From contig OY970343.1 in the NCBI GenBank assembly GCA_963717525.1, positions 416,001-480,000 of the forward strand: DNA of 64,000 nt, in the 5' to 3' direction. A model generated the notes under the pieces. The model was not told the DNA's origin and did not search any database. It saw only the letters and a program-made list of their open reading frames with translations. This document shows, in pieces, positions 45,515-51,002 of this stretch. A program made the position numbers and the translations under genes. Numbering within the stretch: the stretch's first letter is position 1; each line of letters opens with the position of its first letter. This DNA comes from an uncultured Methanoregulaceae archaeon (GTDB lineage: Archaea; Halobacteriota; Methanomicrobia; Methanomicrobiales; Methanospirillaceae).

Positions 45515-45571
45515 GATGGTGAGTTGGGCGGGAACCGATCGGTCCGGACTGATATTCGGGGGTTTTGCCTG

Positions 45572-47307
45572 ATGGCGATTGCAGGCGACGTCAAGCTTGG
45601 GCAGCTCACAAAATATCTCTTCACGGCGCCATCATGGCCGGTCTCGCTCCTTATCCTCATTCTCCTCGGCCTTATCATCGATGGCGCGAGCGCCCGTGCC
45701 TGGGTCTACCTCCCGTTCTCGGGTACGCTTGCCTTTACCATCCCGGCTATTGCCGCTTTTCTTTTCACAAAACCGATCATCGAGTATTCCGGCAAGACGA
45801 TGACCTGGAACCGTTCGGCACTCCTTGCCCTTGCCTGCACGGTCTTTGCGGTCATCATCACCTTCGCCTCGCTTGCCGGGGGATCCGGTTCCTCCCGCTC
45901 TTTTACGGGATCTCCCTTGGCTTTGTCTTCGGTCTTCGCCTCTTTGTGCTTGTCGCGATCTCGGATTACCGCCTGCCCCGGATGATCCTGCCGGCCGTTA
46001 CCCAGAGTGGTGTCGGCGTTATTGCCGGGTTCTTTCTCTTCTCGCCGGAATGGGCATTCTTCGCCATCGTCCTCCATATCGTCTTCGGTCTCGGTTTTGC
46101 GATCCTCATCTGGCTGATCGAGCGCCCGCTCTACCGCGCGTTCCACATACGGGGACTCGCGTTTGTCAATGCATTTATCGCCAACATGACGGACGGTTCA
46201 AAGGGCATGGAGAACTTCTTCCGCGAGATCGGGGAGGAGATCTTCGTGCCGCAGGTCTGCCTCTTCTTCCGCCGGCAAAAGAAGACCGCCCTCCTCTTTA
46301 CCGTCCCCAACCTTCACCCCGGCCCGATGGGCGAGATCGGGGGCGGCAACCTGCCCCGGGTCATTCATGACAAGATGGAGGAAGAAACGATGGTCCCCCA
46401 TGGCTGCGCATCGCACGACTTTAATCTGGTCTCCGAGAGCGAGATCCAAAAAGTGATCGGTGCAATTGAGCGTTCCAGAACGGACCGTATCTATGGACAG
46501 GGTGCAACACCGTCCTCCCGGCTCTCCTGCGGCACAGTCCGGATCCTGTACCAGCGGTTTGGCGATTCCATCCTGATGGTTTCGACCCGGTCACCCCAGA
46601 TGACCGAGGACCTCGATTACTCCATCGGAATGGCGATCATGGCCGAGGGTCATCGCTGGTTCCCGCACGTGGCGTTTGTTGATGCGCACAACTGCATGAC
46701 TGATCTTTCCTCCGCGGTGCTCCCGGCAACCCTGACCGCGATGGAGTACCAGCGCGGTGCGATCCAGGTAATGGAGGCCGCCAATAAGGCGGAGCTCCAT
46801 GCATTCTCGGTCGGCTATGCCCGCGAGCACCTTCCCTATTCCCGCGAGCAGGGATTCGGCGATCTCGGCGTGCAGGTGATGGTCGTTGAGACGTGCGGCC
46901 AGAAAACCGGCTACGTGCTCTTCGACGGCAACAACATGGCCTCCGGTGTCCGCGAGGTCCTGCTTGAGAAGATCCTTACCCTTGTCGATGCAGCGGAAGT
47001 GATGACGACCGATTCGCACGTAGTCAATACGATCACCGGTAAAAACCCGGTCGGCATGGAGATACCGGTAGAAACGTTTCTTCCTGCGGTCCTGCGTACC
47101 GTGCAGGCCGCCATCGATGATCTCGGGCCGGCCGAGTGTGCGGCAACCACGGCGCAGTGCGAACACGTGGTTGTCTTTGGATCCAACCGGATCTCGCAGC
47201 TTGCAAGCACCGTAAACGCGATGCTGATCTTCGTGGCACCGCTCTCGCTGGCGATGCTGCTTCTGGCGTTCTTCCTCTCGCTTGCAGCGTATGTGCTGAT
47301 GGTGTGA
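45572..47307 (+). CDS. DUF2070 membrane protein; apparent frameshift near 45878
   Basis: N-terminal TM bundle; HPGPMGEIGGGNLP, PHG.ASHDFN, VDAHN, DGNN, TTDSH. Confidence 0.85.
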
Positions 47308-47914
47308 GGGAGGGGGCGACATCCCCGATTTACCTGATCCGGGCTACGCTCATCCGGGCCCGAATTGAACCCGGATTCACCTTTTCTGGATCCAATCGGA
47401 GCCCGTATGGGGCTCCGTTTCAAAATAAGCCTGAATCAGCCTTATTTTGGCAATCGGGCGAATTAAAAGGTTCACATAAACGCGGTTTTCGGGCCGATCA
47501 CCAGGGAAACGGGCATTTGTTCGATCCCGAAATAAAAGGCTGAAAAACAGCCGCTAAGGCTTGTTTACGGGCATTATACGGTGCTTAATTTGGGCTTATT
47601 TTGGCAAATGGGGCAAAATAATCAGTTAGATTTTCCTCCTATGGAATCGGACGGTTTTACGGGCGTATTTTGGGGAGAATCATGAGAAGGATCACATTAC
47701 GATTCCTCCCCCCTCCTCACAACGCTCGGAGTCGTTTGGGCTTCCTGCCGGACCCTTGCCGGGCAAAGTGTTGTTTTCTCTCATTTGATCCGCCGCGGGG
47801 AGGTGCCCCGCCGGGGGCGGCGGAACTCCTCGCTTGTGGGGGTATGGGGATATCAGCCCCCATCTTACGGATCGGCCAAAGCCAGAAACATGCTGCTTGG
47901 CTCATTGGCTGAGG

Positions 47915-48300
47915 ATTCCGGAAAAAGAGCGGCTCAGGCAGCGGAAGATTTCGAATAATGTTCAGGTCCAGGGCTGAGAATTTCGGAAAAAGTTCGACCC
48001 GGTAACCGGACTTTTTGAAAAAAGTACGGAAACGTTGTTGAACTTTCTCAAAAAAGTCCGGTGAGGTTGCCAGACTTTTTATGAAAAAATAGGTATCCGG
48101 ATGTGCATTGTATCGTCTGAATCACCCGGACGATCTGCCGGATGTTCCGGAAAAATTCCGGTAACATTATCGAGCTTTTGTAAAAAAGTTCGGCAAGGTT
48201 CGTGGATTTTCCGGATAATGTCTGGTAAGGTTATCGAGCTTTTGTAAAAATGACCGGCACGCTTCGTAAATATTTCGGGAAAAGTCCGGCCCGTGGGGTC
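47915..48300. repeat. Degenerate 32-bp-period tandem array of dyad-symmetric units (about 10-11 units)
   Basis: Anchor base after the A-tract at 47960, 47992, 48024, 48056 and 48156, 48188, 48220, 48252, 48284; exact 20-mer TTATCGAGCTTTTGTAAAAA at 48167 and 48231. Confidence 0.75.
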
Positions 48301-48589
48301 CCCCGACCTGTTGACCGGCTCGCGGCCGGATCTATTGGGCAGACAGGAGATCACCGTATCCCATAGAGATCCCTGTCACGACGGAAACTCCACCGAATCC
48401 CCTGAAAATATTCCCCACATACATAATTTAGCATGATTTATCATCTCTTTTTCAAATCCGGGCCATTTGACCACAAGATATAAAAAAAAAGCGTGCATAA
48501 TCACGAATAGAGAAAGGAGGAAAAGGAACCAGAGCAGCACATATCGTGTAATGACAGTTTGTACCGCAGGCGAACTTGGGTAGGGAAAG

Positions 48590-49345
48590 GTGATTGAAGT
48601 TCATTTGACCACATACGCACCTGCCCGCTGGATCGGTGTTGACCTCAACACGACCGGCCACGCGGCTGTCGCCGCTGAACCGGACAGCGGGAAAGTCCTG
48701 AAACTGGGAAAAAACGTACACTATGTCCGCAGCAACTCCATCAAAAACTGCACGAAACTCTACAGGGAAGGAAAACTCTGGAAACTCAAGAAAGTAAAAA
48801 GCCGTGAGCGCAAGGCGTTCAAGGCAGCATTAAACAAAATCTCCCGGCAGATCGTATCCTTCGCGGAATCGCTCGGGTCGGGCATCAAATTTGAAAAACT
48901 CTTCTCCAGCCGTTACTCGCACTCCCACGATGCTGGCGGTTTTACCGAGTTCTCGTTCGGGAACGGATCGTTCTTTTCACTCCAGCGCCTCGTGGAAAAA
49001 ATGGCAGAAAAACGGGGCATTCCCGTCCTCTACGTGAACCCCGCATATACCTCGAAGCGGTGCAGCCGGTGCGGGAGTATCGGGCGGCGGAGCAGGAAAA
49101 GATTTGAATGCCCGCACTGCGGCTTTGTCGCCCATGCGGACGTGAATGCCGCCTTCAACATCGCGGTTACCTCGCGCCGGTCTGCCATCCTGGACCTCTG
49201 CGGGGAAGAGCAGGAGGACCAGATAAGGCTCACCAAGAAACAGGTGCGACGGCGTGCCCGCGAAGAGATCTTTATACTGCATCCCGGTGTCATGGGAGTT
49301 ACGGTTCCGGCCCCCTGCGAAAACCTGCTCGCGGTGCTGGAATAG
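48590..49345 (+). CDS. Miniature TnpB/Cas12f-like protein (RuvC plus zinc ribbon, no N-terminal WED/REC lobe)
   Basis: WIGVDLN (RuvC-I), IKFEKL (RuvC-II), VNPAYTSKRCSRCG...FECPHCG (zinc finger), HADVNAAFNIA (RuvC-III); RuvC-I Asp is residue 18. Confidence 0.85.
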   Translation: MIEVHLTTYAPARWIGVDLNTTGHAAVAAEPDSGKVLKLGKNVHYVRSNSIKNCTKLYREGKLWKLKKVKSRERKAFKAALNKISRQIVSFAESLGSGIKFEKLFSSRYSHSHDAGGFTEFSFGNGSFFSLQRLVEKMAEKRGIPVLYVNPAYTSKRCSRCGSIGRRSRKRFECPHCGFVAHADVNAAFNIAVTSRRSAILDLCGEEQEDQIRLTKKQVRRRAREEIFILHPGVMGVTVPAPCENLLAVLE

Positions 49346-49452
49346 CATCCCCCGGCATCGTCTTTTTTTCCCGTGACTTTAACGACGGCAGGATCCGGAT
49401 AAAACGGGGAAATGGAGAAAAGATTTCCCCATCAAGATGAAAAGATCTCTCT

Positions 49453-49794
49453 ATGACAGAACATAAGGGACTGCTCTACAGTTTTGCGTTATTCAAGCAG
49501 CGGTACACACGAGGAACCTCGTGGACCCAGATCCTTTTGAATTTTGGGATCATCACGGCAAACGCCAAACTTTTCGAGGACTTTTTCTACATTCAATTGG
49601 GCCTCACCCTGCCTATGGTCATTGCCCTCGCAGTGCCGTTTTATATCATCATCTGTTATATCATCGGGCACTATGATGAGAAGATTGGGTTCTGGCAGAT
49701 CGAGAACAACATGAGCTACCGGTTCACCCCCTACTCCGAGGAGATGCTCAATAGTATCCGGGAGATCAAAAAGAAACTGGACAAAGAACCGTAA
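49453..49794 (+). CDS. Small membrane protein of unknown function
   Basis: 113 aa, one or two hydrophobic helices, charged C-terminal helix. Confidence 0.65.
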   Translation: MTEHKGLLYSFALFKQRYTRGTSWTQILLNFGIITANAKLFEDFFYIQLGLTLPMVIALAVPFYIIICYIIGHYDEKIGFWQIENNMSYRFTPYSEEMLNSIREIKKKLDKEP

Positions 49795-50126
49795 CCGGCA
49801 TTCATGCCTTTCGTTGGCCGCACAGAGTACTGCGGTTGGTCAGGCTTGTTTACCTGATATCATCCTTATTTTAAAGGATCCCGCCGGCATAGATCCCCGG
49901 GGATCTTCATCTCAGCAACGATTTCTCATGCCCCGTCATTCCGGGAGAACAGGGAACCGGCCGATTTGCTTATACCCCGGCTCTCTCATACAATTCAGGA
50001 AGACATCTGTAGGGCAGTGCGGGGAGAGCAGAGATGGCAAAACATCCGGGACGTTCTGCCGATCCGGGCCTGATGCCGTTATGACCCCCGGGTGGCAGAA
50101 CCGCACGACTGCCTGCGAGGGATAGG

Positions 50127-51002
50127 ATGCAGCTGACCGATGAATCACTCAGAAAGATTGCCGCGCTCCAGAGAAACGAGATCACTGAACATCTCATCTA
50201 CGAAAGAATCGCACAGGTAACCCCGGACTCCCACAACCGCGAAGTCCTGACCCGGATTGCCGGGGAAGAGGTCCAGCACTACAACATCTGGAAGCAGTAT
50301 ACGGGCCGGGATGTCGCTCCCAATCTTCTCCGGGTCTGGTATTACTATCTCATCGCCCGCCTGCTCGGGATGACCTTTGCGATCAAGCTGATGGAGAGCG
50401 TGGAGCAGGAGGCGCAGATCGGCGATCCGGCGCTCCTTGCCGAGATCCCTGAGCTGCCGTCTATGCTTTCAAACGAAGCAAAGCATGAACAGGAGCTTAT
50501 CAATCTGATCGATGAGGAACGGCTGAAATATGTCGGCTCCGTTGTGCTCGGCCTCAATGATGCACTCGTGGAGTTCACCGGCACCCTTGCCGGCCTGACT
50601 TTTGCGATTCAGGATTCCCGGATCATTGCGGTGGCCGGCCTGATCACCGGTGTTGCCGCATCGCTGTCCATGGCTGCCTCCGAATATCTCTCGCAGCGGT
50701 CTGATGAGACGACCGGCACAAACCCGAAGAAGGCTGCATTCTATACCGGGATGACATATATTGTAACCGTTGCCCTGCTGATCCTTCCCTTCCTTCTCCT
50801 GACAAGTCCGTATGTTGCGCTTGTCTTTACCCTTGTGGGGGCGGTTCTCGTCATCTTTGTTTTCACGTTCTACATCTCTGTGGCAAAGGATCTGCCTTTC
50901 TGGAAACGCTTTGCCGAGATGGCCGCCATCAGCCTTGGGATTGCGGCAATCTCCTTTGTGATTGGCCTTGTGATCAGGGTCCTGCTGAATGTGAACGTAT
51001 AA
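50127..51002 (+). CDS. VIT1/CCC1 transporter with N-terminal ferritin/rubrerythrin-like domain
   Basis: NEITEHLIY, EEVQHY, EAKHE; VLGLNDALVE, AASLSMAASEYLS. Confidence 0.9.
   Translation: MQLTDESLRKIAALQRNEITEHLIYERIAQVTPDSHNREVLTRIAGEEVQHYNIWKQYTGRDVAPNLLRVWYYYLIARLLGMTFAIKLMESVEQEAQIGDPALLAEIPELPSMLSNEAKHEQELINLIDEERLKYVGSVVLGLNDALVEFTGTLAGLTFAIQDSRIIAVAGLITGVAASLSMAASEYLSQRSDETTGTNPKKAAFYTGMTYIVTVALLILPFLLLTSPYVALVFTLVGAVLVIFVFTFYISVAKDLPFWKRFAEMAAISLGIAAISFVIGLVIRVLLNVNV

Follow-up and report, generated by a model that had tools for sequence, protein, structure and literature searches.

TnpB is the ancestor of Cas12. Its omega-RNA (reRNA) overlaps the 3' end of tnpB and extends to the right end of the element, and its WED and REC domains hold the guide-target duplex and read the transposon-adjacent motif (TAM). 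To our knowledge, every characterized TnpB descendant, active or nuclease-dead, depends on a guide RNA. Short, non-mobile TnpBs of two archaeal lineages are described by Altae-Tran et al. (2023, PNAS, PMC10691335). The first is a very short (about 220 residues), RuvC-only branch in Halobacteria, for example WP_004214924.1 of Natrialba magadii, and the second is a glutamine amidotransferase (GATase)-linked TnpB of about 280 residues in Sulfolobaceae, which comprises WED and RuvC domains only and for which an RNA-independent nuclease role was suggested. Here we describe a gene for a 251-residue TnpB-derived protein in an uncultured Methanoregulaceae archaeon (GenBank assembly GCA_963717525.1), located in a 64,000-nucleotide stretch of contig OY970343.1 (positions 416,001 to 480,000 of the forward strand) that is referred to below as the window and whose numbering is used throughout. 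Comparison with related genomes indicates a single-copy TnpB descendant that is kept at a fixed syntenic site under purifying selection, and its product is probably a host nuclease that would cut without an omega-RNA guide. Short, non-mobile TnpBs of this kind are already published from the two lineages above, and the idea is less new than was assumed in a preliminary description of this gene made from the window alone. A literature search found no functional study of RuvC-only non-mobile TnpBs, to which the 2023 survey devotes two sentences, and no paper joining TnpB with Methanoregula or Methanomicrobiales. Neither taxon is mentioned in the main text and one supplement of PMC10691335, in whose tables the clade may appear.

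The gene is an intact open reading frame (ORF) of 251 codons with a GTG start and a TAG stop (Table 1). Residues 128–191 match the Pfam domain PF07282 (Cas12f1-like_TNB, E 2.4e-24), and the protein scores 105.9 bits against the NCBIfam profile guided_TnpB (NF040570, cutoff 100), with residues 11–192 covering profile positions 194–387 of 389. Coverage is restricted to these positions, so the protein has no counterpart of the family's N-terminal half. The three RuvC acidic motifs and the complete CxxC...CxxC finger of the preliminary description were located at D18, E102 and D184 and at C158, C161, C174 and C177, respectively, and are invariant in an alignment of 45 sequences that extends down to 30% identity. 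The N-terminal WED/REC lobe is indeed lacking as described, but its size had been put too high, at 150–200 residues; relative to the nearest full-length relatives (347 residues) the absent part amounts to about 125–135. Among solved structures, Cas12f and TnpB chains are closest in sequence, and only their C-terminal 110–190 residues match. An AlphaFold model built from the 45-sequence alignment (mean predicted local distance difference test (pLDDT) 76.4, predicted template modelling (pTM) score 0.68, low confidence at residues 1–8, 108–123 and 229–245) has Cas12f and TnpB as its best structural matches by Foldseek ranking and by superposition. Model residues 8–201 superpose on residues 181–378 of ISDra2 TnpB (8h1j; Z 13.6, root-mean-square deviation (rmsd) 3.4 Å, 167 aligned residues) and model residues 12–204 on residues 219–419 of AsCas12f (8dzj; Z 18.2, rmsd 2.6 Å, 174 aligned residues), so that the structural comparison proposed earlier places the predicted fold on the C-terminal halves of these two enzymes only. 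A search of the ESM Atlas with the protein gave same-family clusters only. As judged from sequence and model, the protein is a RuvC domain with a zinc ribbon and a 55-residue tail, in line with the tail of about 55 residues noticed earlier, and has no WED/REC part.

The genome consists of a single contig of 2.29 Mb and contains exactly one TnpB-family match in protein and profile searches. The earlier observation that no tnpA or IS607 resolvase lies nearby extends to a larger scale, as the whole genome has no Y1 transposase and its two serine-resolvase-family matches are about 0.85 and 0.92 Mb away from the gene. When the genome was searched with the first 140 residues of the nearest full-length relative, nothing was found below E 3 (best E 3.5–3.8); with no N-terminal TnpB piece elsewhere in the genome, a split gene is ruled out. 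In 16-kb comparisons the gene occupies the same place in relatives. It lies downstream of a gene for a DUF2070 membrane protein and its upstream block in genomes G020, G003, G012, G005, G019, G009 and G014, and upstream of a gene for a 113-residue two-helix membrane protein, a VIT1-family gene and a Cache-HAMP-SpoIIE gene in G020, G003, G015, G012 and G004. The DUF2070 neighbour is also kept in the sister genus. In several relatives the spacer to DUF2070 is about 180–190 nt, too short to accommodate a missing 5' half. The gene is immobile: it is present in one copy, there is no transposase and its neighbours are conserved. The ratio of nonsynonymous to synonymous substitution rates (dN/dS, Nei-Gojobori method, 11 orthologs) was 0.09–0.28 in the 52 of 55 ortholog pairs that were not saturated, and 0.09–0.26 in nine phylogenetically independent pairs, with bootstrap upper limits at or below 0.39.

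The gene is widespread among close relatives. In a first draw, matches were obtained in 13 of 24 other genomes of the genus, including ten full-length orthologs at 60–88% identity. In the genus as a whole, which is Methanoregula by database names, matches at E ≤ 1e-30 occur in 71 of 108 species genomes and in 40 of the 50 high-quality ones, mostly as one copy each. All six genomes of the sister genus (g12) have a match, three further families of the order Methanomicrobiales carry single short genes of 199–283 codons, and at E ≤ 1e-25 matches are found in 84 of the 301 genomes of the order; one named member is from Methanovulcanius yangii. Database entries are annotated as 'RNA-guided endonuclease TnpB family protein', 'zinc ribbon domain-containing protein' or 'transposase', and the best 120 of 976 database matches are 239–303 residues long. 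In a draw of 401 genomes from the phylum, the matches outside the order at E ≤ 1e-20 are long frames of 328–443 codons, with the exception of one 242-codon frame that is possibly a fragment. The neighbours of the gene differ by family (DUF2070; a HAD hydrolase and a small GTPase; a PAS histidine kinase; cobalamin genes), and no neighbour is common to different families of the order. The genus also contains a second clade of short RuvC-only genes, which are paralogs at non-syntenic positions (L055–L063, in G097, G094, G080, G089, G055, G118, G101, G102 and G087). Its proteins start KVIRFH... and end in a tail of the form ...SRKMMRKRARA...LSxW, some genomes hold both paralogs, and the longer frames upstream of its genes are unconserved.

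Phylogenetic analysis groups the short forms together. From 195 collected sequences, 179 covered profile positions 17–188, and a first tree of 151 rows was built after 28 of the 45 genus rows were dropped as redundant. All genome-derived short forms fall into one clade of 62 rows (61 short forms and one 290-residue metagenomic protein) with an SH-like approximate likelihood ratio test (SH-aLRT) support of 99. A second tree of 95 rows comprised 12 genus loci, 30 other short loci, 6 long loci, and 30 long and 17 short representatives, with the long-branched sequence P0192 excluded. It contains a bipartition of 54 short forms against 41 others (36 long forms and 5 scattered short representatives) on a branch of 0.41, supported by an ultrafast bootstrap (UFBoot) of 100 and an SH-aLRT of 100 in a run whose bootstrap had not fully settled. 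The sub-clades of short forms match taxonomic families. If the root is assumed to lie among the long forms, the long form being the norm of the family, this bipartition points to one old truncation that predates the divergence of the families, and to vertical descent since then in four families of the Methanomicrobiales. Because no short form beyond the order was identified at E ≤ 1e-20 among the 401 phylum genomes, a comparison that did not include the halobacterial sequence itself, the data also suggest that this truncation was separate from that of the halobacterial short TnpB. The preliminary description had considered a domesticated gene rather than a decayed insertion sequence (IS) fragment, and had named as tests whether same-length orthologs exist at a syntenic position, whether dN/dS differs from 1, and whether any relative has a full-length gene at the site that was simply cut. 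Orthologs of 247–257 residues were found after DUF2070, dN/dS in the nine independent pairs is far below 1, and no relative with a cut full-length gene was found, the short forms being one old clade; together these results favour domestication.

The nearest long relatives provide a reference for what the short forms have lost. They are about 347 residues long, start MILTYK..., and carry about 130 extra N-terminal residues; the RuvC/zinc ribbon core of the short protein is 42–47% identical to that of the mobile relatives L099, L101, L103 and L014, with a common G(V/I)D.NTTGH motif. Genome G145 contains four equal-scoring copies of the 347-residue TnpB (L099). The mobile relatives have a nearly invariant 3' stretch of about 120 nt, which is made up of the last codons and 22 nt past the stop and stops abruptly at ...GTATGTCAG, beyond which the sequences diverge. 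In L099, L101, L102, L103, L012 and L014 these approximately 120 nt are nearly identical between species of different families. By analogy with established TnpB biology, this stretch is presumed to be the omega-RNA scaffold, lying directly against the element's right end. A profile of the scaffold found no match in the genome under study (E ≤ 10) or in the 45 genus loci, and gave weak matches (E 5.7e-6 and 2.7e-4) immediately past the RuvC-III motif of two short genes from other families; we read these as vestiges in early short forms. The 3' codons of the genus vary at synonymous sites, unlike the invariant 3' end of the mobile relatives, and in 10 of 11 orthologs the 40 nt after the stop contain a run of at least five T. 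On these three grounds the clade, as far as sequence comparison goes, is one that has lost the scaffold RNA of its mobile relatives in addition to the protein lobe that holds the guide.

The C-terminal tail is family-specific and evolves faster than the rest of the protein, with a dN/dS of 0.24–0.49 in the nine independent pairs versus 0.06–0.14 in the core (residues 1–195). It ends in the hydrophobic-acidic peptide ENLLAVLE, whose codons vary synonymously among the genus loci that have it, indicating that the peptide is constrained at the protein level. C-termini of this kind are also seen elsewhere in the order, in other families (ENLLFLLE, EHLMCMLE, ENIFAILE, GNIFLLLE and SGLFSLLD), and the tail is absent in one family, whose proteins are 199–232 residues long. 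None of the 7248 ORFs of at least 90 residues in the genome has another ENLLAVLE-like end. The low model confidence of the tail fits a peptide that would fold upon binding a partner.

We propose that the gene is transcribed from its own promoter into a monocistronic transcript that would end at an oligo-T run after the stop, and that the active site of the resulting protein, judging by its conservation, is in use. Without a WED/REC lobe and a scaffold RNA, the choice of target would no longer derive from a guide. The nuclease may instead recognize its target by substrate shape, such as single-stranded or branched DNA or RNA, or may be directed by a partner that binds the conserved peptide ENLLAVLE, and its role in the cell would be useful but dispensable. 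Holliday-junction resolvases of the RuvC/Hjc type, which are homodimers that cut four-way junctions, may serve as a working analogy only. A more specific version, which we put forward tentatively and regard as possible though doubtful, is that the TnpB/Cas12 trajectory has here been run backwards. Guide RNA, WED and REC would have been shed to leave a bare RuvC enzyme, inherited vertically across the order, that a C-terminal docking peptide (ENLLAVLE and its variants) aims at a host partner in DNA or RNA metabolism.

Several observations weigh against an unguided host nuclease. Ten of the 50 high-quality genus genomes have no match at E ≤ 1e-30, and some syntenic copies are decaying: L030 (G014) is broken into three pieces with stops and L029 (G009 contig 15) into two, although G009 holds an intact second copy elsewhere in its genome. 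In the complete genome G041 only residues 2–99 remain (G041:C1:2373318-2373611), and the copies in G093 and G099 carry an internal TGA. It is because of these lost or broken copies that the proposed role would have to be a dispensable one. In addition, the long basic helices that contact RNA in TnpB and Cas12f are kept in the 251-residue protein, making RNA binding possible, and the motifs GGAGG and GTACMGCRG conserved in the leader could belong to a functional RNA. A guide RNA that is encoded elsewhere and is unlike the scaffold of the mobile relatives would escape all searches made.

These latter points bear on the alternative that the protein is still RNA-guided, with its core binding a trans-encoded RNA or its own 5' leader, possibly together with a protein that replaces WED/REC. 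We consider this unlikely. The leader motifs are conserved across families, and RNAalifold applied to 21 leaders nevertheless predicted 5 pairs with 0 covarying, that is, no conserved structure; no convincing second site was found in the genome for the leader motif or for the palindrome upstream of it, and for the leader motif there is no second near-exact one. A long-range pairing between leader and 3' end (GTACCGCAGG with CTTGCGGTGC), with one apparent compensatory change in the window, was rejected because there is no covariation over 33 loci and the 3' codons vary synonymously. The protein keeps the RuvC helices and has a basic helix in its tail, and its characterized relatives are all RNA-guided, as is established and as PMC10691335 describes. 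However, it has no WED/REC part, its genome contains neither a homolog of the mobile relatives' scaffold RNA nor a full-length TnpB that could lend its RNA, and the families have no conserved partner gene in common.

A role as toxin or defence nuclease, for example as an effector of the abortive-infection or toxin-antitoxin-like type that has been suggested for some exapted active TnpBs, is in our view quite improbable. Such an effector would account for the intact active site together with the patchy loss within the genus, and the idea has been published for RHH/MazE-TnpB (PMC10691335). However, no small antitoxin-like gene is conserved next to the short forms, whose neighbours are housekeeping or signalling genes that differ between families, PADLOC applied to the 251-residue protein shows Cas12 homology only, and defence genes are not usually inherited vertically and in synteny throughout an order. 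That the protein is non-catalytic and merely binds nucleic acid or regulates, or that it is a functionless and slowly decaying relic, is very unlikely, for while the gene is lost or broken in some lineages and nuclease-dead TnpB-derived regulators are known (TldR), the D-E-D triad is invariant in all 45 sequences including those at 30–40% identity, dN/dS in the core is low (0.06–0.14), and four families preserve the open frame and its length.

Table 1. Features of the 251-codon gene and its flanks, in window coordinates
Feature	Position	Strand	Basis
Near-palindrome ATGATTTATCAT (ATGATTAATCAT in most orthologs), upstream of TATA box	48433..48444	+	Conserved in upstream alignment
TATA-like box GATATAAAAAAAA inside conserved block GACCACAAGATATAAA; predicted promoter	48477..48489	+	Upstream alignment of orthologs
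Conserved GGAGG; predicted 5' end of leader	48516..48520	+	Upstream and leader alignments
Leader motif GTACCGCAGGCGAAC (GTACMGCRG..GAA), 15–29 nt before start codon	48561..48575	+	Genus and sister genus
In-frame TAG, three codons before start	48581..48583	+	Sequence
Coding sequence, 251-residue TnpB-derived protein (RuvC core, zinc ribbon, tail)	48590..49345	+	ORF and family matches
D18 codon, RuvC-I (WIGVDLNTTGH), GVD motif	48641..48643	+	Invariant in 45/45 aligned sequences and 11/11 orthologs
E102 codon, RuvC-II (GIKFEKL), FEK motif	48893..48895	+	Invariant in 45-sequence alignment and 11 orthologs
Zinc ribbon (TNB), C158-x2-C161 ... C174-x2-C177	49061..49120	+	PF07282; four cysteines invariant (45 sequences)
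D184 codon, RuvC-III (HADVNAAFNIA), HAD motif	49139..49141	+	Invariant in 45-sequence alignment and 11 orthologs
Family-specific C-terminal tail, residues 196–251, basic helix LTKKQVRRRAR	49175..49342	+	Ortholog alignment, model
C-terminal peptide ENLLAVLE	49319..49342	+	Conserved as protein, 33/45 genus loci
Oligo-T run, 17 nt after stop; predicted archaeal terminator	49363..49369	+	Sequence

The start codon is well defined by comparison. The GTG within AGGTGA is kept in all 45 genus loci, as codon −13 from the tryptophan of WIGVD in 43 and −15 in 2, and the codons next to it vary synonymously. All ten full-length orthologs from the first genus draw, which are 247–257 residues long, share a GTG start within AGGTGAT, and upstream of the ortholog start there is either a stop or an open stretch without conservation. 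In the window, the in-frame TAG at 48581 and the ATG at 48551, which is 13 codons before the GTG, lie where the preliminary description had put them. Read-through or pyrrolysine insertion at this TAG was rejected because other orthologs have AAG, a neighbouring TGA or a shifted frame at the site, and the residues encoded upstream show no conservation at the protein level. Longer upstream frames in some relatives (up to 356 residues) were also dismissed; they are low-complexity, unconserved read-through without WED/REC.

An A/T-rich box is present at the position, about 48477, where a TATA-like sequence had been noted, and the block around it is conserved among orthologs, which is consistent with a promoter role. 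The features of the promoter-like block and leader (palindrome, TATA box, GGAGG and GTACMGCRG..GAA) are shared by the genus and its sister genus and, in part, by two further families. The near-palindrome, about 35 nt 5' of the TATA-like box, is conserved genus-wide, has only few near matches elsewhere in the genome, and looks like a regulator binding site. The leader is about 80 nt long, and its GTACMGCRG..GAA motif is also present in similar form in loci of the two other families. Variation within this motif resembles third-codon-position change (ACC/ACA, GCA/GCG/GCT), and its frame relative to the start codon is inconstant. An Rfam search of 47000–50200 at a permissive threshold returned one sub-threshold microRNA match only, and ARAGORN found no tRNA.

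The DUF2070 ORF (45565–47307) as listed starts at a TTG located 106 codons before the Pfam match. Relatives align poorly over this part, and the true start is probably further downstream. The spacer between DUF2070 and the TnpB-derived gene is unusually long here (1283 nt), most orthologous spacers being 180–900 nt. It includes, at 47976–48290, about ten degenerate 32-nt units (TTTTnnAAAAAAGTCCGGnA...; period 64 and 2.3 copies by TRF), which occur nowhere else in the genome, are partly common to G012 and are absent from most orthologous spacers. No repeat-spacer (CRISPR) array was found in 47400–49900, where the only tandem repeat is this one of 64-nt period. Directly 3' of the gene, at 49453–49794, lies the 113-residue ORF with two predicted membrane helices. 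It has no Pfam family, is found at 79–95% identity in closer relatives only, and has a weak PADLOC match to '2TM effector' (E 0.0078).

A strongly selected active site (core dN/dS about 0.1) in a protein that has neither an RNA-holding lobe nor a scaffold RNA raises the question of how a bare TnpB RuvC core might serve its host. The clade offers a well-defined test case, with one probable origin, dozens of orthologs over four families, a fixed site and a terminal peptide that suggests a partner, and its close mobile relatives, which still carry the guide, allow a direct comparison. The clade may further indicate how small a stable RuvC/zinc-ribbon module can be, a point of use for engineering.

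Compared with the TnpB family at large, the 251-residue protein has the RuvC D-E-D triad and the TNB zinc ribbon, and lacks WED/REC, a 3' omega-RNA of the type of its relatives, and residence in a mobile IS200/IS605 or IS607 element. The mobile 347-residue TnpBs of Methanomicrobiales share its core motif and differ by the N-terminal approximately 130 residues, multiple copies and the 3' scaffold. Cas12f (AsCas12f) and ISDra2 TnpB have the same RuvC fold with an inserted zinc ribbon; both also possess WED, REC and parts that read a protospacer-adjacent motif (PAM) or a TAM, together with a guide RNA, and Cas12f in addition has a CRISPR array and a dimeric assembly, none of which was found here. 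TldR is likewise an exapted, immobile TnpB descendant, but is the reverse case: it is nuclease-dead and keeps the guide RNA and the N-terminal lobe, whereas the 251-residue protein has kept the active site and lost lobe and scaffold. The Sulfolobaceae GATase-linked TnpB described in PMC10691335 is similarly small and non-mobile, with intact catalytic residues and no room for a downstream RNA gene, and differs in keeping a wedge domain and a conserved glutamine amidotransferase neighbour. The features given there for non-mobile RuvC-only short TnpBs, namely very short RuvC and zinc ribbon, fixation in a lineage and intact catalytic residues, are all present in our gene. As in the halobacterial branch, the gene is lineage-restricted and non-mobile and encodes a RuvC domain alone (here with the zinc ribbon) with an apparently active site; as set apart by that branch's description, it belongs to another host class, and its 251-residue product has an extra conserved tail and C-terminal peptide. 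What the Methanomicrobiales clade adds to this known kind, on the sequence comparisons presented here, is a single dated origin, purifying selection across the order, the loss of the scaffold RNA that its mobile relatives carry, and conservation of the C-terminal peptide.

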